64,000 bases of DNA, taken from contig JACPDH010000050.1 in assembly GCA_016184115.1 (NCBI GenBank), forward strand, positions 1,701 to 65,700. The letters run 5' to 3'. Source of the stretch: Acidobacteriota bacterium (GTDB lineage: Bacteria; Acidobacteriota; Thermoanaerobaculia; Gp7-AA8). Both the position numbers and the translations under genes were made by a program. Under the pieces are notes generated by a model. It was given only the letters and a program-made list of their open reading frames with translations. It ran no database searches and had not been told where the DNA came from. Below, in pieces: positions 18,499 to 31,907 of this stretch (positions within the stretch are counted from its first letter, which is position 1; every line of letters begins with the position of its first letter).

Positions 18499-18972
18499 GT
18501 GACTGCTCTTTTTACGACGATTGAGGGAGATACGGCGGCGGAAGGACTCCGCGTCGCCGTGGTCGCGAGCCGCTTCAACGACGAGATCGTCTCCGCGCTG
18601 CTCGACGGGGCGGCCGACTGTCTTGCCCGGCACGGGGCGAAAACGGACGACGTGACGATCTATCGCGTGCCGGGAGCATTCGAGATCCCGCAGGCGGTGT
18701 CAAGAATCGGCCGTAAGGGAGAGCTCGATGCAGTGGTCACGCTCGGCGCACTGGTGCGCGGCGAGACGCCTCACTTCGAGCTCATCTCGGCCCAGGTCAC
18801 GGACGAGCTGTCGCGCGTCGCGCGCGAGCTCGGGATTCCGGTCGCGTTCGGCGTGATCACCTGCAACACCATGGAGCAGGCGGTTGCGAGAACGCAAAAG
18901 GGAAGCAACAAGGGCTGGGAAGCGGCGCTCGCCGCCATTGAGATGGCGAACCTCTACCGCAGGCTGGCTTAG
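18499..18972 (+). CDS. ribH: 6,7-dimethyl-8-ribityllumazine synthase
   Basis: VVASRFNDEI...VPGAFEIP...LGALVRGETPHFE. Confidence 0.9.
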   Translation: MTALFTTIEGDTAAEGLRVAVVASRFNDEIVSALLDGAADCLARHGAKTDDVTIYRVPGAFEIPQAVSRIGRKGELDAVVTLGALVRGETPHFELISAQVTDELSRVARELGIPVAFGVITCNTMEQAVARTQKGSNKGWEAALAAIEMANLYRRLA

Positions 18973-18989
18973 GGAGCGGGAGATTCGAC

Positions 18990-19400
18990 ATGGGTGCCCG
19001 ACGCAAGGCAAGAGAGCTCGCTCTGCAAATGCTCTTCCAGCACGATGTTGCTGGCAACGATCCCGATGAGATCATCGAGACGTTCGAGGATATTCAGCGC
19101 GTTCGACCGAACATCCGCGAGTTTGCGATTCGGGTCTTTCGCGGCACGCTCGAGAAGCAGGCCGAAATCGACACGATCGTCGTCGAGCAAACCGAGAACT
19201 GGCGAATCGAACGTATGCCCGTCGTCGATCGCAATCTGATCCGGATGGCGATCTACGAGATGAAGTACCTCGACGACACGCCGAAGCTCGTCATCCTCGA
19301 CGAGGCGATCGAGATCGCGAAGCGATTCGGAACGAACAAGTCGTCGCAGTTCATCAACGGAATACTCGACGGCGTCTTGAAACGCTACAATCTGGTCTGA
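18990..19400 (+). CDS. nusB: transcription antitermination factor NusB
   Basis: RRKARELALQMLFQ...VDRNLIRMAIYE...FINGILD, in the conserved ribH-nusB order. Confidence 0.9.
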   Translation: MGARRKARELALQMLFQHDVAGNDPDEIIETFEDIQRVRPNIREFAIRVFRGTLEKQAEIDTIVVEQTENWRIERMPVVDRNLIRMAIYEMKYLDDTPKLVILDEAIEIAKRFGTNKSSQFINGILDGVLKRYNLV

Positions 19401-19478: not shown

Positions 19479-21434
19479 TTGAGCCTTCTGGGGCGTCTCG
19501 AAGATCTGTCCCTGACAGACATCGTTCAGATCGTTTTCCTCAGCAGGAGAACGGGCGTCCTCGAGATCATCGATTCTCGCGGCCGTCATTCGGTGATGTT
19601 CCAGCAAGGGCTCATCGTCAACGCGACCTCGCCGAAGACTCCCGACCTCGGCGCCTATCTGCTCGCATGCGGCATGGTCGATGCCGCCACGCTTCAGACG
19701 ATGAAGCAGGCCGAGGATTCAGGAATCCCCCTTGGCACCGCGGTCATCGACATGAATGTCGTGACGGTCGACGCCTTGTCGGACGCGATCCGGCTCCACG
19801 TCCTCGATGTGATGACGCCCCTTCTCTCGAGTCGCGATGGCGAATTCAACTTCATCCTGAGTGAATCGCTCACGGCACTCGACATCGAGTACGAGCCTCA
19901 GCGCATCTTCAAGGAAGGGGGAATCGCTCCGGCGAGAATCCTGGGAGAAGGCGAGAAGCTCAAGCCGTTGAAAGGTCTCGAAGACTCGATGCGCGCCGGC
20001 AAGGAGCTGCTTCGCGGCAACGTGGCGCAGACGACTCCACCAGGCCGTCTCGACCTCACGATGACCGAGGCGCCCCCCGCCCCCAGGTTTGCTCCGCTGC
20101 CGCCGTCGCCGATGGAGCCGCCCGACCTTTCGGAGAACGAGCTGGCCTCGATCGACGACGAGCCGTTCGACCTCGGGCTCGACGCCGCGCTCGAGGCGAT
20201 GGCGCCAACGCCAGGAACGCGTGGCGCGGAGCCGGCTGCTGCTCCTCTCGAGTCTCTCGTCGACTCGGTGCTCGAGCCTCCAGTCACTCCCGAGCCTCCC
20301 GTCGCGGAACTGCCGGCCGACGCAAGGCCTGTTGATTCCTTACCCGCGTCGCACCCTGACGTCGTAGCGCCGAGAGGACCAGCGACCGAGTTTCGAATCA
20401 CCGAGCAGCCACCGATCCAGGACATGGAGCGCGTCGTCGTTCTCTATCAGCAGGACCCGCTGCTCCGCGTCTCGGCACGACGAGCCTTTACCCGGCGCGG
20501 AATGACGACTGCACAGTACGGGGCGATGGAGGATGCCCGCGACGAAGTCGTCGAGCTCTTGAAGAAGAATCGATTCTTCGTGACGTTTCTCGATCTGGGC
20601 CCGCCATCGGGAGGTGGCACTGGTGAGGTGTTGCAGCTGCTCGCGCAGGTCAAAAGGCGGAATCACCGGCTCCCGGTCGTGGTGATCGACCGCGTGGCCG
20701 ATCTCCGCCGCCGTCACGATCTGCTCAAGAGCGGCGCCGACCTCTACCTCACGAAGCCTGCCGAAGGACATCTTCAGCCCGGCATGGTCGAGGAACAGCT
20801 CGCACTCTTCGCCGACGAGCTCGTGCTGTTCGCACAACGCGCCTTCGCCGAGCAGATCGAAGCAGGGGGAGGCGATCCCGATGCGTCGTACCAGATCTCG
20901 GCGCAGGAGAAGAGCGAGCGGAATTCGCAGGTCCTCATGCAGCTGATCAATGAGCTGAGCGACCCGAACGATATCAGCCAGGTGTCGCAGACGATCTTGC
21001 GGCTGACCGGACAGTACCTGGAGCGAGGAGCGATCTTCGCCTCCGCGATGGTGCAGTATGTCGGCATTGGAGGCTTTGGGCCGACAGGCGGTGCGGGCGA
21101 CATGAATGAGCGCGCCCGCGGCATCAAAGTGGGGCGCAACGAGCCCTCGGTGCTCAAAGACGTGACCGAATCGAGGAAGCCGCACCGCGGCAAGCTGCGG
21201 AAGACAGACGCGAACGTGAGGCTGATCGGCGGGCTCGGAACGCTCATGCCGAGCGAGGTGCTCGTTCTCCCGATCCTGAATAAGGACGAAGTGGTCGGTA
21301 TACTCTACGCGGACAACGCGTCGAACCGCGCGCCGATCGAAGAAGTCGCCGGGTTGGAGATTTTCCTTTCGCAGGCGGGGTTCGCGCTTCGGAACGCGAT
21401 GATCGCGAACCGGGGCCGTTACGGGCTCGAATGA
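19479..21434 (+). CDS. DUF4388-like N-domain / degenerate receiver / C-terminal GAF protein
   Basis: N-terminus LEDLSLTDIVQIVFLSRRTGVLEI (DUF4388-type) and a long Pro-rich linker. The receiver-like fold has QQD in place of the DD pair but retains FLDLG and LYLTKP. GAF-like C-terminus. TTG start with GAGGAG upstream. Confidence 0.65.
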   Translation: MSLLGRLEDLSLTDIVQIVFLSRRTGVLEIIDSRGRHSVMFQQGLIVNATSPKTPDLGAYLLACGMVDAATLQTMKQAEDSGIPLGTAVIDMNVVTVDALSDAIRLHVLDVMTPLLSSRDGEFNFILSESLTALDIEYEPQRIFKEGGIAPARILGEGEKLKPLKGLEDSMRAGKELLRGNVAQTTPPGRLDLTMTEAPPAPRFAPLPPSPMEPPDLSENELASIDDEPFDLGLDAALEAMAPTPGTRGAEPAAAPLESLVDSVLEPPVTPEPPVAELPADARPVDSLPASHPDVVAPRGPATEFRITEQPPIQDMERVVVLYQQDPLLRVSARRAFTRRGMTTAQYGAMEDARDEVVELLKKNRFFVTFLDLGPPSGGGTGEVLQLLAQVKRRNHRLPVVVIDRVADLRRRHDLLKSGADLYLTKPAEGHLQPGMVEEQLALFADELVLFAQRAFAEQIEAGGGDPDASYQISAQEKSERNSQVLMQLINELSDPNDISQVSQTILRLTGQYLERGAIFASAMVQYVGIGGFGPTGGAGDMNERARGIKVGRNEPSVLKDVTESRKPHRGKLRKTDANVRLIGGLGTLMPSEVLVLPILNKDEVVGILYADNASNRAPIEEVAGLEIFLSQAGFALRNAMIANRGRYGLE

Positions 21435-21444
21435 GGCGGACAGA

Positions 21445-21828
21445 ATGAAGATACTCGTTGTTGAGGATTCGCCCTCGATGCGCGCGTACGTGACGACGCT
21501 CGTGGAGAGCTTTCACGACGAGGAAGAGGTTGAGATCGTCGAGGCCTCGAGCGGCTTCGAGGCGCTCAAGGTTCTGCCTCACCACAAGCTCGACGCAATC
21601 CTCACCGACATCAACATGCCCGACATCAACGGGCTCGAGCTCGTCAGCTTCATCAAGAACCACCCGGGATACAAAGCGATCCCGATCCTCGTGATTTCCA
21701 CCGAGTCGAGTGAGGAAGACCGGAAGCGCGCGGAGGCGCTCGGCGCCGAAGAGTACCTCGTGAAGCCGTTCGCGCCGGAGGACCTGCTCGACAAACTGCG
21801 TCGGCTGCTCGGGAAACCGTCCGCATGA
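21445..21828 (+). CDS. cheY: CheY-like single-domain response regulator
   Basis: Canonical receiver residues: LVVEDS, ILTDINMPDINGLE, VISTE, YLVKP. Confidence 0.85.
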   Translation: MKILVVEDSPSMRAYVTTLVESFHDEEEVEIVEASSGFEALKVLPHHKLDAILTDINMPDINGLELVSFIKNHPGYKAIPILVISTESSEEDRKRAEALGAEEYLVKPFAPEDLLDKLRRLLGKPSA

Positions 21829-23852
21829 CGAAAGACGACGATCGCGTCAAAGAGGAGTTCACGTCCGAAGCCGAAGAGCTTCTCGACGCGCTGTCGAACG
21901 ACCTGGTCGAGTTCGAGTCGCAGGGACGGAACGTCCGGCCCGAGCTCGTCAACAAGATTTTCCGTGAGATCCACTCGCTGAAGGGTCTTGCCGGGATGCT
22001 CGGCTTCGTCCAGATCTCCGAGCTCTCACACAATCTCGAGGACATGCTCGACAAGCTCCGGATGGGGAAGGTCGAGATCTCGCGTGATCTTCTCGACCTC
22101 CTTTACGACGCGGTCGACAGTCTCAACCGCCTCGTCATCGCGATCCACGATCCCGCGATGGAGGCGCTCGTCGATGTGCCGAAGCTGACGAGCCGCATTC
22201 ATGCGCTCGTCTCGCAAAAGGCTCCCGAGCAGAAAGGCGATCCACTCGCCGGGCTCGAGATCGACGAACAGACGCGCAAGTCGCTGACCGAGTACGAGGA
22301 GCACCGACTCGTCGAGAACGTCAAGAGCGGTCGTGCGATCTATCTCGTCGAAGTCACATTCGACTTCAGCGATTTCGACGAGAAGCTTCGCGCGATTACG
22401 GCCGCGCTCAGCCCGTTAGGCGAGGTGATCTCGACGCTTCCCGCGATCGATTCGAGCGGCGGAAACGGAATCTCGTTCCGCCTCCTCTACGGCTCCGACG
22501 CCGACAAGGCCGCAGTGATCGACACCGCGGGGCGGGAGGCGAACGTCCGTTCACTCCGCACGGGAGCTTCCGCTGTCGCGCCGGCGGACGAAGCCGTCGT
22601 CGCCGAACCGGGCGCCGAAGAGGACTTCACACTTCGATCGATGTCGCGCACGGTTCGCGTCGACATCGGCAAACTCGATCACGTGATGAACATCGTCGGC
22701 GAGCTGATCATCGAGAAGAACCACCTCGAGGGCGTTACGCGCACGCTTCAGCTCCAGAACCAGAGGATGGTCTCGCACGAGCTCGTGAAGATCTCCCGCA
22801 ACTTCGACCGGAAACTCAACGAGCTGCAGAAGTCGGTGATCGAGACGCGCATGGTGCCGATCGGGCAGATCTACTCGAAACTCGGCCGCACGGTCCGCAA
22901 GGTAGCGCGCGAGCTCCGGAAGGAGATCGATCTCGTTCTTCGGGGCGAGGATACCGAGCTCGACAAGATGATGGTCGAGCAGCTGACCGATCCGCTGATG
23001 CACATCATCCGCAACGCGATCGATCACGGGATCGAGCCACCCGAGCAGCGCGTCGCCGCGGGCAAGCCTGCGACTGCACGCGTCGTGCTCAACGCCTACC
23101 AGAAGGGGAACTCGGTCGTCATCGACGTGATCGACGATGGGCGTGGCATCGATCCCGAGAAGGTCAAGCAGGTTGCAGTCAAGCGTGGCCTCATGCAGCC
23201 GAAAGAGCAGATCGACCTGCCGCGCGCCTGCGAGCTTCTCTTCACTCCGGGCTTCTCGACGGCGGCGGAAGTGAGTGAGATCTCGGGACGCGGCGTCGGC
23301 CTCGATGTTGTTCGAAAGAACCTGCAGGAGCTCAAAGGCTCGATCGACATCATCTCCGACATCGGTAAGGGGTCGACGTTTCGGATCATGCTGCCGATCA
23401 CGCTCGCGATCATCCAGGCGCTCGTCGTGCGCGCCGGTGATGAGAACTTCGCGATTCCACTCACGTCGGTCGAGGAGTCACTCCGGATCCGCGGGCGCGA
23501 GATCACCACGGTCGAGAGACGCGAAGTCTTCAGCCTCCGGAACTTCGCGCTGCCGCTGCTGCGGCTCTCCGACGCGTTTCAGGTGCGCGACGGACGAGAC
23601 ACGAGCTCACCCGACACCAAGTGGTTCATCGTCGTCACGCGAGCCGGCGAGCGTATGGTCGGCATCCTCGTCGATGCACTCGTGCGGCAGCAGGAGATCG
23701 TCATCAAATCGATCGGTGACCGTCTCAAGGCGATTCCCGGGATTGCGGGGGCGACCGAGATCGGTGAGAACGAGATCATCCTCGTGGTCGACGTCGGTTC
23801 ACTGATTGACAACTACGGGCCGACCGCACGGATGGCTCGAAGCGGTCGCTAG
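21825..23852 (+). CDS. cheA: chemotaxis-type histidine kinase CheA
   Basis: HPt FREIHSLKGLAGMLGF, dimerisation region, HATPase boxes (HIIRNAIDHG, DDGRGID, GRGVGLDVV, GKGSTF) and a C-terminal CheW-like domain. ATGA overlap with cheY. Confidence 0.9.
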   Translation: MTKDDDRVKEEFTSEAEELLDALSNDLVEFESQGRNVRPELVNKIFREIHSLKGLAGMLGFVQISELSHNLEDMLDKLRMGKVEISRDLLDLLYDAVDSLNRLVIAIHDPAMEALVDVPKLTSRIHALVSQKAPEQKGDPLAGLEIDEQTRKSLTEYEEHRLVENVKSGRAIYLVEVTFDFSDFDEKLRAITAALSPLGEVISTLPAIDSSGGNGISFRLLYGSDADKAAVIDTAGREANVRSLRTGASAVAPADEAVVAEPGAEEDFTLRSMSRTVRVDIGKLDHVMNIVGELIIEKNHLEGVTRTLQLQNQRMVSHELVKISRNFDRKLNELQKSVIETRMVPIGQIYSKLGRTVRKVARELRKEIDLVLRGEDTELDKMMVEQLTDPLMHIIRNAIDHGIEPPEQRVAAGKPATARVVLNAYQKGNSVVIDVIDDGRGIDPEKVKQVAVKRGLMQPKEQIDLPRACELLFTPGFSTAAEVSEISGRGVGLDVVRKNLQELKGSIDIISDIGKGSTFRIMLPITLAIIQALVVRAGDENFAIPLTSVEESLRIRGREITTVERREVFSLRNFALPLLRLSDAFQVRDGRDTSSPDTKWFIVVTRAGERMVGILVDALVRQQEIVIKSIGDRLKAIPGIAGATEIGENEIILVVDVGSLIDNYGPTARMARSGR

Positions 23853-23855
23853 ACG

Positions 23856-24668
23856 ATGTTTCGCGAATTCTTCGGCTTCCGTCACAAGCCGTTCGGCAAG
23901 ACGCCGAACCCGGCGTTCCTTTACGAAAGCCCACAACATCGGGAGGCGCTCGCGCGGTTGGAGTACGCCGTCGAGGAGAAGGAGCTCGCTCTTCTCTGTG
24001 GCGACGTCGGTTCGGGCAAGACGACGCTCTCCCGCGCGCTGATCGACCGGATCGGCGAGGCGCGCCCCGTCATTCTCATCGTCAATCCGGCGCTCTCGCC
24101 CGCGCAACTGCTGCGCTCGATCGCTTCAGGGTTCGGCCTCACGCCGAAGCATCATCGCGCCGACCTGCTCGACCAGCTCTACACGAAGCTCTTCGAGCTC
24201 TACGAGAGCGGGCGCGAGCCGGTGCTGATCATCGATGAAGCGCAATTGATTCCGACGAAAGCGACCTTCGAGGAGATTCGCCTGCTGACGAACTTCCAGC
24301 TCGACGACGACAATCTCCTCTCCATCGTCCTAATCGGACAGCCCGAGCTCAAAGAGCGTCTCGGCCACCGCGCCTATCGGGCGCTGCGGCAGCGCATCGG
24401 AATCCAGTACTCGCTCTCTCCTCTATCCGAGGAAGAGACGGTGCGCTACGTCCAGCATCGCCTTCAGGTGGCGGGCGGCGGCACAAATCCCTTTACCATA
24501 GATGCAATGTCGGCGATCCACCGCTACAGTGAGGGGATTCCCCGCGTCATCAACACGCTTGCGACAACCGCGTTACTCGACGCGTTTGGCGATGAGTCGG
24601 TTACGATCGATGGCGCGAGGATCGCGGCCGCCGCGCGCGAGCACGGCCTCGACGGGAGACAGCGCTGA
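23856..24668 (+). CDS. ExeA/GspA/MshM-like AAA+ (AAA_22-type) ATPase
   Basis: FGF...PF N-terminus, Walker A GDVGSGKTT, Walker B LIIDEAQ, QPEL and GIPRVIN motifs typical of ExeA-like ATPases. Starts 3 nt after the cheA stop, and its stop overlaps the cheW start (TGATG). Confidence 0.75.
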   Translation: MFREFFGFRHKPFGKTPNPAFLYESPQHREALARLEYAVEEKELALLCGDVGSGKTTLSRALIDRIGEARPVILIVNPALSPAQLLRSIASGFGLTPKHHRADLLDQLYTKLFELYESGREPVLIIDEAQLIPTKATFEEIRLLTNFQLDDDNLLSIVLIGQPELKERLGHRAYRALRQRIGIQYSLSPLSEEETVRYVQHRLQVAGGGTNPFTIDAMSAIHRYSEGIPRVINTLATTALLDAFGDESVTIDGARIAAAAREHGLDGRQR

Positions 24669-25537
24669 TGGTCGATCTCGTCAAGATTCGGAAGAAGGCG
24701 AAGAACGCGAAAGAGCCCGCGCCCGAGGTGGCCGAGGCTCCGCCTGTCGCAGTGGGCGCACAGCCTGCCGCGACGCCCGTGACTCCTCCCGCCGTCGCGC
24801 CGCCGTCACCCGACGAATCCGAGCCGGCGGCGACGATTGACGTTGAGCCTGCACCGCTCTCTCCCCCACAGCCGGCGCCCGCGTCGGCGAAACCGAAGAA
24901 GCAGCCGAAGGCCGCGCCGAAGGAGCAGGCACCCGTGCCGCCTCCGCGCGAGGAGTCCCCTCCGACACCGAGTCGGGCAGAAGCTCCTCTTCTCGAGCCC
25001 GAGGACGCAGGCGAAGACCGGCTCGTGAGGTTCAAGCGGCTCGCAGGGAAGCGGCGCAGTTGGGGAGCGGCTTCGAAGGCAGCGGGGCAGGAGGAGACGG
25101 CAGCAGCAGAAGGCGACCTCGAGCTGTTGCGCTTCCGCGTGGCGGGGGAAGACTACGCGGTCGACATCGACAAGATTGTCGAGATCGTGCCACCACGCGC
25201 CACGACACGAGTTCCGAACGCCGACGATGCGATCGTGGGCATCATGTCACTTCGCGGTACGATCGTCACGGTGATCGACTTGCGGCGAAAACTGGGCCAC
25301 CCGAGGGTCGATCTCGACACGCTGAAGGATGCAAGGATGATCGTCGTCGAGCGTGCCGGCGAGACCGCAGGCTTCCTCGTCGACAGGGTGTCTCGCGTCG
25401 TAAAGCTCGATCGCGGTCAGATCGAGAGCCACCCGGTCGTCAGCTCGCAGGAACAGAGCGAGTACGTCTCGGGCGTCTTCCAGTCGAATGACGGTTTGGT
25501 CATCCTCCTCGACATTGAGAGAATACTGGCAGGGTAG
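24668..25537 (+). CDS. cheW: CheW coupling protein with Pro/Ala-rich N-terminal extension
   Basis: The C-terminal ~150 aa is CheW-like (LLRFRVAGEDYAVDIDKIVEIV...SLRGTIVTVIDLRR...GLVILLDI). The N-terminal ~130 aa is low-complexity P/A/E-rich. Confidence 0.8.
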   Translation: MVDLVKIRKKAKNAKEPAPEVAEAPPVAVGAQPAATPVTPPAVAPPSPDESEPAATIDVEPAPLSPPQPAPASAKPKKQPKAAPKEQAPVPPPREESPPTPSRAEAPLLEPEDAGEDRLVRFKRLAGKRRSWGAASKAAGQEETAAAEGDLELLRFRVAGEDYAVDIDKIVEIVPPRATTRVPNADDAIVGIMSLRGTIVTVIDLRRKLGHPRVDLDTLKDARMIVVERAGETAGFLVDRVSRVVKLDRGQIESHPVVSSQEQSEYVSGVFQSNDGLVILLDIERILAG

Positions 25538-25550
25538 GCAACGCACCTTC

Positions 25551-26387
25551 ATGGAAATCACCTGCAAGCAGTGCTCGGCAACGTATCGAGTCAACGTGCA
25601 GCTGCCGCTGACCGGTCCGGTCAGGGTCGCATGTCCGTCGTGCGGGAAGCAGAAGACGTTGCGTCCGGTCGCCGCGGAGCCCGCCGGAGCGGGAAGTGCC
25701 GCGCCTGCGCCACGACCGTCCGGAAGGCGACGGAACGCGGTCATCGCGGACGAGCCACGACCGTTCCGCGAGTTCCTCGTTGCCGAGCTCAGCAAGCTCG
25801 GCTTCGAGCCTCACGTCTTCGAGACGGGCGACAAGGCACTCGAGCGCGTGCGCGAGACGGGCGCGGAGCTCGTGATCCTCAATGTCTACCTGCGTGGCAA
25901 GCTCGGCGTGGAGATCTCCGAAGAGATCAAGGCCGACCCTGATCTGAAGCACTCGAAGGTCGTGCTCATCGGCGCACTCTTCCGCGCAAACCGTTTCCGT
26001 GCGAATCCGACGAATCTCTACGGCGCCGACGAGTACATCGAGGAACAGATCCCGGCGGTCGAGTTTCACCGGATCGTTCGTAAGCTCTTCCCATCGGTGA
26101 GCGACCACGAGGAACCGGAACCTCGCGAGTACGACGAGGCGAAGCGCCTCGCGCGCCTGATCCTCTCCGACATCATCATTTACAACGCGGAGAAAGTAGA
26201 GCGCGGCATCCGCGAAGGTACCTTCTTCGAGCTTCTCCGCGCGGAGATCGAAGACGGTCGCAACTACTACGAGAGCCGTGTGCCTTTCAAGGTCCGCCAG
26301 CGCACCGAGTTCTTCCACGAGACGCTGCAGCATTTCGTCGAAATGAAGCGCGAGGAAGTACTCGGGCCGCGACGAGCGGAAGCGTGA
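25551..26387 (+). CDS. zinc-ribbon + degenerate (pseudo-)receiver protein
   Basis: MEITCKQCSATYRV...VACPSCGKQ zinc ribbon. The receiver-like fold has N at the phospho-Asp position (LVILNVYL) and no conserved KP. Conserved-looking helical C-terminus. Confidence 0.6.
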   Translation: MEITCKQCSATYRVNVQLPLTGPVRVACPSCGKQKTLRPVAAEPAGAGSAAPAPRPSGRRRNAVIADEPRPFREFLVAELSKLGFEPHVFETGDKALERVRETGAELVILNVYLRGKLGVEISEEIKADPDLKHSKVVLIGALFRANRFRANPTNLYGADEYIEEQIPAVEFHRIVRKLFPSVSDHEEPEPREYDEAKRLARLILSDIIIYNAEKVERGIREGTFFELLRAEIEDGRNYYESRVPFKVRQRTEFFHETLQHFVEMKREEVLGPRRAEA

Positions 26388-26391
26388 CGCG

Positions 26392-28617
26392 ATGACGATC
26401 GATCCCCAACTGCTCGAGCAGGCCCGGTCGGCGGATTCCGACGCGCGCCACCGTGTCGCCGCGACCGTCGCGAAGAGCGACGACGGCGAGCATCTCGCAC
26501 TCGCATTCGAGCTTCTGGGCGACCGTGACTGGCGCGTTCGGAAGGCGATCGTCGAGGGGTTCCTGCAGCACACATCGGATGACATCATCCGCGGCTTGAT
26601 CCTCGCGCTTCACGATGACGCGAATGCGGGTAAGCGCAACTCCGCGACCGAGGCGCTCATTCGGATCGGTCAGCGCAGCCTCGAGATCATCCTGCGTGAG
26701 TTTCACCAGGAGCGCGATCCCGACGTCCGGCTCTCACTCGTCAATCTGCTCGGCGACCTCCGGAGCGACGACGGCCTTACATTGCTTCTCCACGTTCTCG
26801 ATGGCGAGGATGACATCAACGTACTCTCCTCGGCGGTCGCGTCGGTCGGCAAGTATCGCGACTCGCGCACGATCTCGAAGCTTCTCCAACTTCTCGGTCG
26901 CGACGATCTCTGGCTGAAGTTTCACGTCGTCGAGGCACTCGGACACATTGGCGACCGTGCGGCGTTGCCGTCGATCCTGCCTCTATACGCGGAGCCGTCG
27001 TTGCGCAAACCGGTGCTCGAGGCGATCGGACGCATCGCCGACGTCGGAACGGTCAACTTCCTGCTCCGGATCCTCAACGAGGAGTCGAAGCTCAACCTGA
27101 CCGCGCTTCGTGCGCTGATTCGCATCGCCCGCTCCGACAAGCCTCGCGTAATCGAGGCCGCGGAGAGGCAGATCATTCAGAGGATGTTCCGCGAGGCGTT
27201 CCCGAAGACCAAGATCGACGCGCTCGTCGACCACCTCGTGTCGACGCCAAAGCGCGACGTGAAAAACTTCATTCTGACGTTCCTTGGCTGGTCGGGCGAT
27301 GTGAGAGCGACGCACCCGCTTCTCGACCACCTCCAGCAGCCTGAGAGCGCCGACCTGGCCGCACAGGCGTTGATCGACCTCGGCGCCGTCGCGTCGCAGC
27401 AGGTGCTCGAAGCGTTGCAGAACAGCGACGACGACGAGATCACAGCGCTACTGATTCGCATCGTGAACATGGCGGGAGGCCCGGAGGCGATTCCGACGAT
27501 CCTCCAGTTCCTCGACCACGACAACTCCATGATCCGGAGGCTCGCGATCGAAGCTCTCGGCGAGATCCTCGATCCCGGCACGGTCGATTACCTCCTCGTC
27601 AAGCTCGACGATCCCGACGTCGCCTGCCAGCAGGCGGCGGTGAACTCCACTTCGGCGCTCGTCGCCGCGTTCCCGGAGATCAAAGCGGACACGCTCGCGA
27701 AGATCCGGCGCCTGCTCGGCTCGAATAACGTCCCGACGAAGCTCAACTCCCTGTCGATCTACGTCAACATCCAGGGCGAGGGCTATCACGACGAGCTTCT
27801 GCTCGCGTCGAAGGACGAGGACGCCGTGATCCGGCAGAAGGCGATCTCGCTGATGGGGAAGTTCAGCGACGAGCGTTTTGCCGACACGATGGTGCTATCC
27901 CTTGCCGACGAGTCGACCACAGTTCGTCTCGCGGCGATCGAGGCCATCCAGACGCTGAAGCCGGAGACGGGCCTGGCACCGCTGATCTCGTCGCTCGAGG
28001 ACACAGACATCTGGCTCCGCACGGCGGCGGCGCAGGCGCTCGGCGAGTACCGCGACGCGGCGATCGTCGAGCCCCTTGTGAGGCACCTCGAGACCGACGT
28101 GACCCCGGTGAAGATTGCCGTGATCGACGCCCTCGGCAAGTCGGAGAGCGAAGGCGCGCGCGACGCATTGCTGCAGCGGCTCGACGAGTCGGACATCGAG
28201 ATCCGTAAGGCGGCGATTCTGGCGCTTTCGCGGATTCCGGGCGAGACCATCTTCGAACGGCTCTCGGGCTTTCTGCTCGATCCTGATTGGCGGCTCCGCG
28301 CCGCCGCGGCGCTTGCGCTCGGGCAACGCGGGGACGAGCGGGCGCTCGGCGCGCTCCACCATGCGATGGAGACGGATCCCGACACCTTCGTGCGGCAATC
28401 GGTCGTCGCCGGCCTGGAGAAAATGGCGAGCCGCTCGTCGTTCCCGTATCTACTCGCGGCGATCGAGGATCAGGCTGTCCTCGACGAGATCTCCCACATG
28501 TTCGTGAAGCACAAGGAGAGCTACAGGGACCTTCTCGAAGATGCGTGGCGTCACGCCGGGAGCCGGCACGAGGTGATCATCGCGGCGATCCTTCAGTCGA
28601 TGCGAGCGACGGTGTGA
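26392..28617 (+). CDS. 741-aa HEAT-repeat (PBS-lyase-type) protein
   Basis: About 20 repeats of the D-x-x-V/I-R-x-x-A-x-x-A-L-G pattern (e.g. DWRLRAAAALALGQRGD, DIWLRTAAAQALGEY, DIEIRKAAILALSRI). Confidence 0.8.
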   Translation: MTIDPQLLEQARSADSDARHRVAATVAKSDDGEHLALAFELLGDRDWRVRKAIVEGFLQHTSDDIIRGLILALHDDANAGKRNSATEALIRIGQRSLEIILREFHQERDPDVRLSLVNLLGDLRSDDGLTLLLHVLDGEDDINVLSSAVASVGKYRDSRTISKLLQLLGRDDLWLKFHVVEALGHIGDRAALPSILPLYAEPSLRKPVLEAIGRIADVGTVNFLLRILNEESKLNLTALRALIRIARSDKPRVIEAAERQIIQRMFREAFPKTKIDALVDHLVSTPKRDVKNFILTFLGWSGDVRATHPLLDHLQQPESADLAAQALIDLGAVASQQVLEALQNSDDDEITALLIRIVNMAGGPEAIPTILQFLDHDNSMIRRLAIEALGEILDPGTVDYLLVKLDDPDVACQQAAVNSTSALVAAFPEIKADTLAKIRRLLGSNNVPTKLNSLSIYVNIQGEGYHDELLLASKDEDAVIRQKAISLMGKFSDERFADTMVLSLADESTTVRLAAIEAIQTLKPETGLAPLISSLEDTDIWLRTAAAQALGEYRDAAIVEPLVRHLETDVTPVKIAVIDALGKSESEGARDALLQRLDESDIEIRKAAILALSRIPGETIFERLSGFLLDPDWRLRAAAALALGQRGDERALGALHHAMETDPDTFVRQSVVAGLEKMASRSSFPYLLAAIEDQAVLDEISHMFVKHKESYRDLLEDAWRHAGSRHEVIIAAILQSMRATV

Positions 28618-28678: not shown

Positions 28679-29533
28679 ATGACTAGCGGATTCAACTTGG
28701 GGCTGAACCACCACCTCGATCTGCCGGACGACGTGTTCCGGCAGATGCGGGACGCGATCTACGCGCGCAGTGGCCTCTGGTTTGCCGAAACGTCGAAGTA
28801 CCTCCTGCAAAAGCGGCTCTCACCCAGGGCCCGCGAGCTCAACTTCGACTCGTTTCAGAAGTACTTCTATTTCCTTCAATACGATCCGCGAGCTGCGGCG
28901 GAGTTCGACCACATCTTCGATCTCGTCACCACGAACGAGACCTACTTCTTCCGCGAGCCGGCGCAGCTATCGGCCTTCATCGACGAGATCGTCCCGGAGC
29001 TGATCGCGGCGCGGCAAGTCAAGAAGGTTCGCATCTGGAGCGCTGGCTGCTCCTCAGGCGAGGAGCCATACACGATCGCGATGCTCCTCACCGAGCGCGG
29101 ATACTACGAACAGGCAGCGTTCGAGATATTCGCGAGCGACATTAATCAACAGGTCCTGTCGAAGGCTCGCAAGGGTCACTATCGCGAGAACGCATTTCGC
29201 GCCACGACACCCGAGCTGCGAGAGAAGTACTTCGCAAGAGAGGCCGACGGTTCGTGGCGTGTCGTGGACAGCATCAAGAACAAGGTCTCGTTCGGGCGGC
29301 TCAATCTCTACGACGCGTCGCGTGTTGCGCTCCTCGGTTATCTCGACATCATCTTTTGCCGGAACGTGATCATCTACTTCGACGACTCGTCGAAGAAGGT
29401 GGTGGTGGGGAACTTCTACGGGCGGCTGAACGTCGGCGGCTACCTGCTGCTCGGACATTCTGAATCGTTGATTTCCCTCTCGAGCCAGTTCAAGCTGAAG
29501 CACCTGAAGAACGACATGGTCTACCAGAAGTAA
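28679..29533 (+). CDS. cheR: CheR-type protein-glutamate O-methyltransferase
   Basis: TNETYFFRE, IWSAGCSSGEEPYTIAM, IFCRNVIIYF. Confidence 0.9.
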   Translation: MTSGFNLGLNHHLDLPDDVFRQMRDAIYARSGLWFAETSKYLLQKRLSPRARELNFDSFQKYFYFLQYDPRAAAEFDHIFDLVTTNETYFFREPAQLSAFIDEIVPELIAARQVKKVRIWSAGCSSGEEPYTIAMLLTERGYYEQAAFEIFASDINQQVLSKARKGHYRENAFRATTPELREKYFAREADGSWRVVDSIKNKVSFGRLNLYDASRVALLGYLDIIFCRNVIIYFDDSSKKVVVGNFYGRLNVGGYLLLGHSESLISLSSQFKLKHLKNDMVYQK

Positions 29534-29555: not shown

Positions 29556-30590
29556 TTGATTCGAGCCATAGTCATCGACGACTCCGCGTACAACCGCGTG
29601 ACGATCTCCAGGCTTCTGGAGAAGCAGGGCGACGTTCGCGTGGTCGCAACCGCGGTCAATGGCGAAGACGGGATCAAGCAGGTCCTCAAGCACAAGCCCG
29701 ACGTCATCACGCTCGACCTCGAGATGCCGCTGCTCGACGGCTTTGCCTTCCTGCGCTGGCTCATGGCGAACAACCCGACCCCGGTCATCGTCGTTTCCTC
29801 GCGCGCGAGCGATCGCAGTGTGTTCAAGGCACTCGAATTCGGCGCAGTCGACTTCATCGCCAAGCCCGGCGGCCGCGTCTCCTCGAAGCTCGAAGAGATC
29901 GAACGCGATCTGATCGCCAAGGTGCGTCAGTGCGCCGAGGTGAAGCTCGAGAATGTGAAGTCGAGAATCGTCGAAGAGACGAAGCCGGAGGAACCTCGAC
30001 CGATGGTGGCGGGGCGCGCGGTCGATCTCATCACGATCGGCGCATCGACCGGCGGCCCTCCCGCGCTGCAACTCGTCTTCCAGAAGCTCCCTCTGATGCG
30101 AGTGCCAATCGTCGTGGCGCAACACATGCCGCCTACGTTCACGAGGCTCTTCGCGGAGCGCGTCGACCGGCTCACACAGTACAAGGTCAAAGAGGCCGAG
30201 AACGGAGAGGCGCTCGTGCCAGGTGTCGTTTACATCGGTCCCGGCGGGCGGCAGACCGAAGTCGTCCGCAACGGCGACGTCCTGAGGATCCGCCTCGCCG
30301 ACAAGGCGGGGGACGACCTCTATGCGCCTTCGGTCAATCGGCTCTTCGATTCAGCAAGTGATGCATGTGGCGACCGGCTGCTTGCGATCATCCTCACGGG
30401 TATGGGCGACGACGGATCGATCGCGATCAAAAAAGTCGCAGCGCGCGGCGGAAAGACCGTTGCCGAGGCCGCGGAAACAGCGGTGATCTTCGGAATGCCT
30501 GGGGAGGCAATCCGTACCGGAGTCGTGCAAAAGGTGCTCCCTCTCCCCGAGATTCCGGACGCAATCTTCGAAATCTGCACCACCGCCTGA
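29556..30590 (+). CDS. cheB: CheB-type protein-glutamate methylesterase (receiver + esterase)
   Basis: Receiver (VIDDS, ITLDLEMP, DFIAKP) plus esterase (IGASTGGP, QHMP, LTGMGDDG). TTG start. Confidence 0.9.
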   Translation: MIRAIVIDDSAYNRVTISRLLEKQGDVRVVATAVNGEDGIKQVLKHKPDVITLDLEMPLLDGFAFLRWLMANNPTPVIVVSSRASDRSVFKALEFGAVDFIAKPGGRVSSKLEEIERDLIAKVRQCAEVKLENVKSRIVEETKPEEPRPMVAGRAVDLITIGASTGGPPALQLVFQKLPLMRVPIVVAQHMPPTFTRLFAERVDRLTQYKVKEAENGEALVPGVVYIGPGGRQTEVVRNGDVLRIRLADKAGDDLYAPSVNRLFDSASDACGDRLLAIILTGMGDDGSIAIKKVAARGGKTVAEAAETAVIFGMPGEAIRTGVVQKVLPLPEIPDAIFEICTTA

Positions 30591-30650: not shown

Positions 30651-31469
30651 ATGACTACCGACGACTACAACCGTAAGGGTGAGAAGTTCCTCGAGCTCTT
30701 TAACAAGGGGAAGGAATTCACCGAGGAGCTCCTGAAGGAAAACCAGCGACTCCGCTATCGGCTTGCGTCGATGGAAGCGACCGGAACGCCAGTCGCGAAC
30801 CAGGAGGAGATCCAGCAGCTCCGGTCGCAGATCCAGAATCTTGCCGACGAGAATCGACGGCTTCACGAGCGCTTTCGCGAGGTTGAGGAAGAGAACAAGG
30901 ACTTCGCCTCACGCTACGTCGAGATCGAAGAGCAGAACAACAACCTCGCGAACCTCTACGTGGCGAGCTACCAGCTTCACTCCACGCTCGACTTCCGCGA
31001 GGTGATCCAGATCGTTCAGGAGATCGTGATCAACCTCGTCGGTGCGGAAGCGTTCGCGATTCTGCTTCTCGATGAGAAGACGAACGAGCTGAAGACGATC
31101 GCCTGCGAGGAGGAGAAGCCCTGGACGGGGCTCGAGAATCTCACCGTTCGCTGGGGCGAGGGAGTTCTCGGTAAGGTGGCAAAGAGCGGGGAAGCGTACT
31201 ACGTCAACCAGGACATCGAAGGTGGAGAGATCACGTTCGAGAAGCCGCTGGCGGCCGTTCCGCTCAAGATCAAAGAACACGTCATCGGGCTGATCGTGAT
31301 CTACAGCCTGCTGCAGCAGAAGGACTCGTTCTCCGCAGTCGATTACGAGCTCTTCTCGCTGCTCGCCGCGCACGCCGCGACGGCGATCTTCTCGTCGAAG
31401 CTCTATTCGCAGTCCGAGCGGAAGCTCAACACGATTCAGAGCTTCCTCGACCTGCTTACGACCACATAG
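30651..31469 (+). CDS. coiled-coil + GAF domain protein
   Basis: The N-terminal ~110 aa is heptad-rich and E/Q/N/R-rich coiled coil. The C-terminal domain is GAF-like (FREVIQIVQEIVINLVGAEAFAILLLD...VPLKIKEHVIGLIVIY). Confidence 0.7.
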   Translation: MTTDDYNRKGEKFLELFNKGKEFTEELLKENQRLRYRLASMEATGTPVANQEEIQQLRSQIQNLADENRRLHERFREVEEENKDFASRYVEIEEQNNNLANLYVASYQLHSTLDFREVIQIVQEIVINLVGAEAFAILLLDEKTNELKTIACEEEKPWTGLENLTVRWGEGVLGKVAKSGEAYYVNQDIEGGEITFEKPLAAVPLKIKEHVIGLIVIYSLLQQKDSFSAVDYELFSLLAAHAATAIFSSKLYSQSERKLNTIQSFLDLLTTT

Positions 31470-31517: not shown

Positions 31518-31907
31518 TTGATGGAAAATACAACGTTTCTCGTCGTAGAAGACTCGCCAACGATGAGACAGCTCATCTCGTTCTCGCTGAAGCGCTTCAA
31601 GAATGCGCGCATCATCGAGGCCGTCGATGGCGTCGATGCGCTGAAGAAGCTCTCCGGCGAAAGAATTGACCTGATCCTCACCGACATCAACATGCCGGTC
31701 ATGGATGGCCTCAAGCTCGTGTCGCTCGTCAGGCAGAACGCGCAGCTCCAGAGCATTCCGATCATCATCATCACCACGGAAGGCGCCGAGGAGGACCGCG
31801 AGCGCGGTCTCGCTCTCGGCGCCAACGCCTACATCTCGAAGCCCATCCAGTCGTCACACCTGATCAAGACGATCTCCGAGCTCCTCAGTACCGGCGCGAT
31901 CGGCTGA
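31518..31907 (+). CDS. CheY-like single-domain response regulator (second copy)
   Basis: LVVEDSPTMR, ILTDINMPVMDGL, IITTE, YISKP. Confidence 0.85.
   Translation: MMENTTFLVVEDSPTMRQLISFSLKRFKNARIIEAVDGVDALKKLSGERIDLILTDINMPVMDGLKLVSLVRQNAQLQSIPIIIITTEGAEEDRERGLALGANAYISKPIQSSHLIKTISELLSTGAIG

Follow-up and report, generated by a model that had tools for sequence, protein, structure and literature searches.

A gene for a soluble ExeA-like AAA+ ATPase lies between cheA and cheW in the stretch of DNA analyzed here (the window: 64,000 nucleotides, 63.7% G+C, of contig JACPDH010000050.1 from an Acidobacteriota bacterium of the class Thermoanaerobaculia), and this cheA-ATPase-cheW arrangement is shared by about 170 loci, which belong to at least two phyla and include relatives of the ATPase down to 44% identity. 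The reading that preceded this work, made from the window's letters only (the sequence-only reading), had left conserved synteny with cheA and cheW in related genomes to be looked for, and it is found. The gene is real, conserved, and under selection, and from these comparisons we consider it almost certain that the ATPase is a dedicated chemosensory component. We further propose that the ATPase acts through a basic peptide at the N-terminus of the adjoining CheW in the assembly or positioning of chemosensory arrays; on this second statement our confidence is evenly divided.

The ATPase gene and the parts of it that we discuss are the following (the Walker A, Walker B, GQPEL, and GIPRVIN motifs were read directly from the sequence).

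23856..24668, forward strand: gene for the soluble ExeA-like AAA+ ATPase (ATG start, 270 amino acids, Pfam AAA_22)
24000-24026, forward strand: Walker A/P-loop GDVGSGKTT, residues 49-57
24225-24245, forward strand: Walker B LIIDEAQ, residues 124-130
24246..24314, forward strand: class-specific segment, residues 131-153, which includes a predicted beta-hairpin (LTNFQLDDDN)
Residues 161-165, forward strand: GQPEL motif
24534-24554, forward strand: GIPRVIN, a putative sensor-2-type lid motif, residues 227-233, which opens a lid helix (229-245) in the structural model

The gene is tightly packed between its neighbors: its ATG at 23856 is separated by three bases (acg) from the cheA TAG at 23850-23852, and its TGA (24666-24668) has one base in common with the cheW ATG (24668-24670) in a TGATG junction; a Shine-Dalgarno-like GGGAG lies inside the ATPase gene, 9 nucleotides (nt) 5' of the cheW ATG. 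The sequence-only reading had described both junctions, and the Walker A, Walker B, QPEL, and GIPRVIN motifs, correctly; each motif is present in the 270-amino acid open reading frame (ORF). It had placed the gene at 23856-24670, of which the start stands and the end moves to 24668, as 24670 runs two bases further, to the end of the cheW ATG. The abutment and overlap support co-transcription of cheA, the ATPase gene, and cheW, and the three genes are probably also translationally coupled. Stoichiometric co-expression with the kinase and the coupling protein, which the sequence-only reading took such junctions to imply, does not follow from the data; in the Thermoanaerobaculia the median spacing from CheA to the ATPase is 75 nt.

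We collected related loci with a 9-sequence alignment as the query (an 18-sequence alignment was too diverse and was replaced). The first scan, with one genome per GTDB species, confirmed 561 relatives and gave 80 loci from among them; 77 are labeled Thermoanaerobaculia or Acidobacteriota (60-94% identity) and three Nitrospirota/Thermodesulfovibrionales (57-59% identity), and when the loci were compared by tblastn with eleven window proteins the same gene order was near-universal. The second scan, of metagenome contigs with the Nitrospirota protein as the query, gave 80 more loci (73-100% identity to the query) that share the order CheY-CheA-ATPase-CheW1-MCP(-MCP)-CheW2-HEAT-CheR-CheB, where MCP is a methyl-accepting chemotaxis protein. 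Counting only loci with sufficient flanking DNA, CheA is immediately 5' of the ATPase in 132 of 134 (73/75 in the genome set, 59/59 in the metagenome set), CheW is immediately 3' in 129 of 133 (73/74 and 56/59), and the HEAT protein is found further 3' in 82 of 85 (54/55 and 28/30).

The divergent short representatives, with 44-55% identity, were examined locus by locus; those that are linked to chemosensory genes have the following arrangements (REC, receiver; ZnR, zinc ribbon; aa, amino acids).

L164: full Thermoanaerobaculia-type cluster (NCBI label of members, 'Deltaproteobacteria bacterium')
L165: CheA-ATPase-CheW-MCP
L166: CheA-ATPase-CheW
L167: ATPase after an MCP-signal fragment
L169: CheA-ATPase-CheW(365 aa)-HEAT-CheR-REC
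L170: MCP...CheW-ATPase-CheW(338 aa)-CheB-CheR-HEAT...CheY-CheA
L171: REC-CheA-ATPase-CheW(304 aa)-CheW-MCP-ZnR-REC-HEAT-CheR-CheB

Two further short relatives have no such link: L168 is located beside a glycerate kinase gene on a 1.6-kb contig, and a 44%-identical AAA_22 protein (L174:2-1781) is encoded directly after, and overlapping, a gene that encodes a Mu-transposase C-terminal domain. The latter is, as judged from its neighbor, TniB/MuB-like, and it places the che-linked clade close in sequence to the transposition ATPases.

The gene that follows the ATPase encodes a CheW with a distinctive N-terminal extension.

24668..25537, forward strand: extended CheW, 289 amino acids in total; the CheW domain (Pfam, 4e-36, residues 152-287) is encoded by 25121..25537
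24668..24712, forward strand: basic N-terminal peptide of CheW (MVDLVKIRKKAKNAK), net charge +5
24713..25120, forward strand: low-complexity Pro/Ala/Glu-rich linker (residues 16-120: 29% Pro, 20% Ala, 12% Glu)

The peptide is 12-15 amino acids long with the consensus M(V)D[IL]xK[IL]RKKxK. In 156 of 166 loci the reading frame that starts at the ATPase stop opens with a K[IL]RKK-type core, and the strict pattern D[ILV]x[KR][ILV]R[KR]K is almost confined to this place: in a six-frame translation of 1.84 Mb, 149 of its 151 occurrences are at the N-terminus of this CheW. The motif extends to the lineages with 44-55% identity; for comparison, the peptide is MVDLVKIRKKAK in the window, MDIAKIRKKLK in the Nitrospirota, MDILKARKKAK in L169, MDIAKLRKKAK in L171, and VVDILKLRKLQKK in L170. 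The linker varies among loci in both sequence and length and is acidic in other lineages, so that total CheW length is 115-307 amino acids in the Thermoanaerobaculia and up to 365 elsewhere, with the CheW domain last. The CheW adjacent to the ATPase is never a plain CheW; the second CheW of a Nitrospirota cluster (CheW2 of L083, 159 amino acids) has its CheW domain from residue 4 and carries no extension. A second conserved motif, KLE(R/K)FKxxAGKRR (LVRFKRLAGKRR in the window, CheW residues 118-131), closes the linker immediately ahead of the CheW domain; it is specific to the CheW of the Thermoanaerobaculia, and the Nitrospirota proteins showed no sign of it.

The junction between the ATPase and this CheW is the tightest in the cluster. 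With the start codon closest to the ATPase stop taken as the CheW start, the distance is ≤20 nt in 74 of 78 loci (three of the 78 from Nitrospirota), and the genes overlap in 56; typical spacings are -8, -1, and +4, with a median of -8 in the Thermoanaerobaculia, and the Nitrospirota lineage has an overlap of 20 nt. An 8-nt overlap of cheA with the ATPase gene occurs in 16 of the 78 loci and is general in the Nitrospirota lineage.

The family assignment that the sequence-only reading had left to a hidden Markov model search is secure: the protein matches Pfam AAA_22 with E = 1.6e-24 (87 bits, cut-off 27), and 6,897 of 8,000 scored database candidates match the ATPase at E ≤ 1e-10. The top NCBIfam match is TIGR03015, the XrtA/PEP-CTERM-associated ATPase, which aligns end to end (residues 1-257 with model positions 1-260 of 269) at 237.9 bits, under the cut-off of 324.5. 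Among 1.84 billion cluster representatives, searched exhaustively, 30,453 relatives were found. The nearest of these beyond the protein's own lineage are a few short proteins (44-55% identity) and a large second group of 400-850-amino acid proteins (43-47% identity). All four of these long forms examined with Pfam are canonical ExeA/GspA with a C-terminal PG_binding_1 domain, and in about 80% of the nearest long forms the ATPase module is followed by a hydrophobic, transmembrane-like stretch. In the window protein there is no transmembrane segment (maximum 19-residue hydropathy, 1.38), and Pfam finds nothing in its 270 residues beyond the ATPase module, including no peptidoglycan-binding domain (PF01471); because it has neither a hydrophobic segment nor a further domain, it is predicted to be a lone ExeA ATPase module, soluble and cytoplasmic. 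The ExeA/GspA identity given by the sequence-only reading is thus correct for the AAA_22 ATPase module and does not extend to the membrane segment, the peptidoglycan-binding domain, or the GspB partner, all of which are lacking. A scan with PADLOC for defense systems returned only weak, generic P-loop matches. Among the relatives, two proteins (P0122, 674 amino acids; P0135, 599 amino acids) have two AAA_22 modules in tandem within one polypeptide.

An AlphaFold2 monomer model built with 67 homologues (pLDDT 90, pTM 0.83; a single-sequence model with pLDDT 37 was set aside) has an AAA+ alpha/beta core followed by a helical lid. The nearest folds in Foldseek are TnsC, MuB, and archaeal ORC/Cdc6, then RuvB, with TM-scores of about 0.7 (top entries 7ufi, 8xvb, and 7m99: query TM-score 0.69-0.71, probability 1.00, E-values down to 5e-11); the sole sequence match in the PDB is MuB (E = 0.006). 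TnsC, MuB, and ORC/Cdc6 are ATP-dependent oligomers.

The residues needed for ATP hydrolysis are intact. In all 166 che-linked sequences G49, G52, G54, K55, and T56 of Walker A and D127 and E128 of Walker B are invariant, as are R142, N146, F147, Q148, D150, N153, Q162, Q179, R180, Y198, R202, G227, P229, R230, and N233; from their positions in the model, Q162 (end of beta-4) would be sensor 1, R180 (between beta-4 and beta-5) the arginine finger, and R230 (start of the lid helix) sensor 2. The ATPase is well conserved within the Thermoanaerobaculia (roughly 70-75% identity, near the roughly 70% of CheA), and its intact catalytic residues indicate a catalytically competent enzyme. Set against 49 canonical long-form ExeA sequences, 27 che-linked ones have the same catalytic residues, and the class-specific differences are concentrated in residues 131-153, where the che-linked proteins have NFQLDDxN and canonical ExeA has NLETxxxK. 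The model has short strands at 147-148 and 151-152 in this segment, which we regard as a candidate partner-specificity surface.

The ATPase-CheW pair shares its layout with two precedents, ParC-ParP of Vibrio and ExeA-ExeB of type II secretion, and it is this shared layout that leads us to propose that the ATPase binds the CheW peptide. In ParC-ParP, as in PpfA-TlpT of Rhodobacter, a che operon holds an ATPase gene and, after it, the gene of a protein that joins the array. ParP has its ParC-binding domain at the N-terminus, then a long proline-rich linker and an array-integrating CheW-like domain (PMC5706961); the downstream CheW likewise runs from a conserved N-terminal peptide, a candidate ATPase-binding element, through a Pro-rich linker to a CheW domain. 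The ATPases themselves are unlike: ours is an AAA+ protein of the ExeA/TnsC/MuB kind with no sequence relationship to ParC or PpfA, its Walker A is GDVGSGKTT and not the deviant KGGxxK[ST] of the ParA/MinD type, the ParA, CbiA, and MinD families are absent from its Pfam matches, and the listed fold matches of its model are AAA+ proteins. The sequence-only reading had contrasted the ParA-like ATPases, as those known to position arrays, with ExeA-like ones; that comparison is correct, and nothing in the cluster is ParA-like.

The likeness to ExeA/GspA of Aeromonas and Vibrio and to MshM-type proteins lies in the AAA_22 module (with the identity of 43-47% to the long-form ATPase domain given above), an N-terminal PF..TPDP, Walker A and B, GQPEL, and GxPRxxN, and in a partner gene that abuts or overlaps the 3' end and encodes a conserved peptide at the extreme N-terminus. 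The comparator was a canonical long-form ExeA, 47% identical, with a T2SSB/GspB gene downstream of it; the extreme N-terminus of this T2SSB/GspB, MSLILEALKRSENER, is invariant across homologues that are only 26-68% identical overall. GspA and GspB of Escherichia coli K-12 proved unsuitable for this comparison, the former because it has diverged too far (BLASTP E = 0.047) and the latter because its N-terminus is not similar. Unlike ExeA/GspA, the window protein has no membrane span and no peptidoglycan-binding domain, its partner is a CheW and not GspB/T2SSB, and its context is chemosensory; unlike in ExeA-ExeB, the partner peptide has a different sequence and the ATPase has the class-specific hairpin segment. 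The best structural matches, TnsC/TniB and MuB, share the core-plus-lid AAA+ fold and the same Pfam clan and family neighborhood, and are ATP-dependent oligomers that are regulated by a terminal peptide of their partner; unlike them, the che-linked ATPase is an acidic protein with no transposase or transposon ends and no match to Pfam TniB. It resembles the XrtA/PEP-CTERM ATPase in being a short, soluble form and differs from the TIGR03015 family in its sub-threshold score and in the lack of any PEP-CTERM/exosortase function among the Pfam-annotated genes of the cluster.

The mechanism that we propose treats the ATPase as a fixed accessory part, from the AAA_22/ExeA-like lineage, of one chemosensory class with the layout PatA_N response regulator, CheY, CheA, ATPase, N-extended CheW, (MCP, CheW2), HEAT, CheR, CheB. 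ATP binding would cause the ATPase to oligomerize, as its structural relatives do; the oligomer would dock on the basic N-terminal peptide of the adjoining CheW; and the CheW domain, behind its long flexible Pro-rich linker, would insert into the MCP-CheA-CheW lattice. An ATP-driven oligomer would thereby be tied to the array and could serve its nucleation, positioning, or disassembly, with ParC-ParP and ExeA-ExeB as the analogues. Binding of the peptide, oligomerization, and the cellular role are inferred. Charge is consistent with docking, because the ATPases are acidic (pI 6.3 in the window, median pI 5.7 for the che-linked proteins), the peptide is +5, and the acidic hairpin sequence FQLDD replaces LETxxxK. 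The most specific form of the proposal, a two-part AAA+-driven system for array assembly, positioning, or recycling that would have arisen independently of ParC/ParP and PpfA/TlpT and in which KIRKK docks on the hairpin at residues 146-153, is tentative, and we hold it with less than even confidence.

Several points weigh against a role exerted through the CheW peptide. Taking the CheW start as close as possible to the ATPase stop biases the CheW distances toward small values; these starts are supported because the conserved N-terminal peptide is located there. The peptide, being basic, could by itself bind DNA or anionic lipid. Its homology to the GspB N-terminus is not supported by a position-specific scoring matrix: compared with the invariant GspB sequence (MSLILEALKRSE), its scores under three null models give p = 0.13, 0.16, and 0.57, and the two peptides are not significantly similar, so the analogy with ExeA-ExeB is one of position and character and not of sequence. 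A midpoint-rooted neighbor-joining tree places the che-linked sequences on one side and the long peptidoglycan-binding ExeA proteins on the other, which is suggestive of a single recruitment into che clusters; the tree carries no bootstrap support. Every carrier is an uncultured metagenome-assembled genome (MAG) or a metagenomic contig. Finally, five loci (L080, L124, L126, L128, and L144) retain CheY-CheA-ATPase without the downstream CheW, and so hint at a tie between the ATPase and CheA.

That tie is the basis of the explanation that competes best: the ATPase would act mainly on CheA, as an ATP-dependent regulator, loader, chaperone, or extra input, with its adjacency to CheW secondary. The position of CheA immediately 5' in 132 of 134 loci and the 8-nt overlap of the two genes described above are in its favor, as are the five reduced loci. 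However, the CheA side is the looser one (median 75 nt against -8 on the CheW side in the Thermoanaerobaculia), and in L170 the ATPase is encoded about 6 kb from CheA yet directly 5' of the motif-bearing 338-amino acid CheW. One Thermoanaerobaculia MAG contig (L071:3754-5008) has no CheA between CheY and the ATPase, which could be a deletion or a mis-assembly, and the CheA of the window shows no distinctive feature in its Pfam domains. The conserved CheW peptide favors a role in array assembly or remodeling over an ATP-dependent input to CheA, and we regard an action centered on CheA as unlikely.

Less probable again is that the ATP-bound ATPase binds the nucleoid non-specifically and tethers or spaces cytoplasmic arrays, with the CheW peptide stimulating hydrolysis, as an AAA+ analogue of PpfA/ParA. 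The top structural matches, TnsC and MuB, form filaments on DNA, MuB is the sole sequence match in the PDB, a 44%-identical relative adjoins a Mu-type transposase, and no MCP is found in the Thermoanaerobaculia cluster or, by motif scan, in the 64-kb window. But the acidity of the che-linked ATPases is unfavorable for non-specific DNA binding, no DNA-binding residues were identified in them, and the MCP of the Nitrospirota clusters has an N-terminal sensor followed by HAMP, a layout typical of membrane chemoreceptors; we think a nucleoid tether very doubtful.

We give similarly little weight to a canonical ExeA/MshM task, in which the ATPase would serve a pilus, secretion, or exopolysaccharide machine and would be co-transcribed with the che genes because the che system controls that machine. 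The PatA_N response regulator of the cluster recalls the pilus-controlling Tax/Pix systems, and the top NCBIfam match is an ATPase associated with PEP-CTERM. Members of the family function in type II secretion and type IV pili (PMC4098917), and PA5037/PA14_66580 functions in twitching (PMC6321873). Against such a task, the protein lacks the transmembrane segment and the peptidoglycan-binding domain that about 80% and four of four, respectively, of the examined long forms have, and its TIGR03015 score is below the cut-off. No GspB (PF16537), secretin, or pilus gene was found among the genes of the cluster, the ten other largest window ORFs scanned, or the Pfam-annotated genes of related loci. 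Nor would a factor for an output machine be expected to hold its place between cheA and cheW in different phyla.

A hitch-hiking or decaying mobile-element ATPase (TniB/IstB-like), or an artefact of ORF calling in GC-rich DNA, has in its favor that AAA_22 includes TniB and that the one relative noted above lies beside a Mu-type transposase, but we give it practically no credence, as there is no nearby transposase, Pfam TniB and IstB do not match at E ≤ 0.01, the NCBIfam IstB match is negligible (17.5 bits, cut-off 200), and the conserved position and catalytic residues in 166 sequences from different phyla rule it out.

Chemosensory arrays are among the best-studied bacterial signaling machines, and to our knowledge the ParA family contains the only ATPases known to organize them. 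We found no description in the literature that links ExeA-like/AAA_22 ATPases to chemosensory clusters, although our coverage is incomplete and this is absence of evidence only; a paper on Geobacter che clusters does not describe the association. As a chemosensory accessory module the ATPase is apparently undescribed: it brings a new class of accessory ATPase to chemosensory systems and a new setting in the cell to ExeA-like proteins. If our proposal for the ATPase and the CheW peptide is true, an AAA+ protein encoded between cheA and cheW together with a peptide-bearing CheW would be a new class of array accessory factor and the first AAA+ motor or scaffold that is integral to a bacterial chemosensory array, and the poorly understood ExeA-like ATPases would acquire a new cellular role. 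The pair is soluble and free of membrane, which makes the action of an ExeA module on its partner testable. There is also a consequence for annotation: public records name the protein 'AAA family ATPase', 'ExeA family protein', 'type II secretory pathway predicted ATPase ExeA', or 'general secretion pathway protein A', and for the hundreds of Acidobacteriota and Nitrospirota entries that carry a type II secretory or general secretion pathway name the pathway is probably misnamed.

In addition to the ATPase and the extended CheW, the che cluster of the window contains the following genes.

19479..21434, forward strand: PatA_N (DUF4388/PATAN)-receiver-GAF protein, the first gene of the cluster (DUF4388 1.5e-17; GAF match)
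21445..21828, forward strand: CheY-like single-domain response regulator (Response_reg 3.8e-28)
21825..23852, forward strand: CheA with Hpt, H-kinase_dim, HATPase_c, and P5/CheW-like domains (Pfam)
25488..26387, forward strand: zinc-ribbon and receiver-like protein (Zn_ribbon_4 and Response_reg both just below cut-off)
26392..28617, forward strand: HEAT-repeat protein, 741 amino acids (HEAT_2 9.2e-80)
28679..29533, forward strand: CheR methyltransferase (Pfam CheR 2.2e-59)
29556..30590, forward strand: CheB methylesterase with receiver (CheB_methylest 7.2e-57, Response_reg)
30651..31469, forward strand: coiled-coil and GAF protein (GAF_3 1e-15)
31518..31907, forward strand: second CheY-like response regulator (homologues in L001 and L003 carry Response_reg)

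The PatA_N-receiver-GAF gene is kept upstream in related loci, and the gene for the zinc-ribbon and receiver-like protein is kept in the loci of the Thermoanaerobaculia. The receivers of these two proteins score 29.6 and 29.2 bits, respectively, just below the Pfam cut-off of 30.2, and may be atypical or pseudo-receivers. As listed, the start of the zinc-ribbon gene overlaps cheW by 50 nt; the real start is probably the ATG at 25551 (MEITCKQC). The second CheY is the most conserved protein of the cluster, with 84-99% identity across the Thermoanaerobaculia loci (tblastn). A HEAT/PBS-lyase-like repeat protein beside CheR and CheB is a likeness to the Che7-type clusters of Myxococcus xanthus, whose HEAT-repeat protein is Cpc7; Che7 is not known to contain an ExeA-like ATPase or a motif-bearing extended CheW. 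A scan of ten further large ORFs of the window showed housekeeping genes, among them those for TyrRS and AddAB-like nucleases and a Bat operon.

The Thermoanaerobaculia clusters (loci L004-L079) have no MCP gene, and those of the Nitrospirota have one or two. CheR and CheB are present in the window but no MCP is found in its cluster or elsewhere in it, so the receptor must be encoded elsewhere. The Nitrospirota MCP (965 amino acids; L083:9459-12356, and L084-L163) has a Mcp40H-20-type sensor, HAMP, and the MCP signaling domain, and it is unusual in having a phosphonate-binding (periplasmic-binding-protein-like) domain C-terminal to the signaling domain.

Individual loci depart from the common order by insertion or loss, and the gaps in L004 and L020 were inspected for MCP genes. 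In L004 (5998-8001), which of all the loci is most closely related to the window (94% identity), a 2-kb insert whose ORFs have no Pfam match separates cheA from the ATPase gene. In L020 (1599-3942, 'Candidatus Gilichinskyi gelida'), an inserted type II restriction-modification pair, with genes for a C5 cytosine methylase and an EcoO109I-like endonuclease, separates cheY from cheA; L027, L048, L051, and L058 have comparable gaps of 2-5 kb. In L128 (8849-9510), a toxin-antitoxin-type pair (DUF433/DUF5615, PIN-like) is directly 3' of the ATPase gene, with the remainder of the che cluster absent; L124, L126, and L144 are likewise cut down to CheY-CheA-ATPase, and in L144 genes for a Ras-like GTPase and a GAF-GGDEF protein converge on this remnant. 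The position of the cluster on the chromosome, by comparison, appears to be stable: ribH (DMRL synthase) and nusB are directly upstream in the window (18499-19400) and in L001, L003, and L164, that is, up to the lineage whose ATPase is 55% identical.

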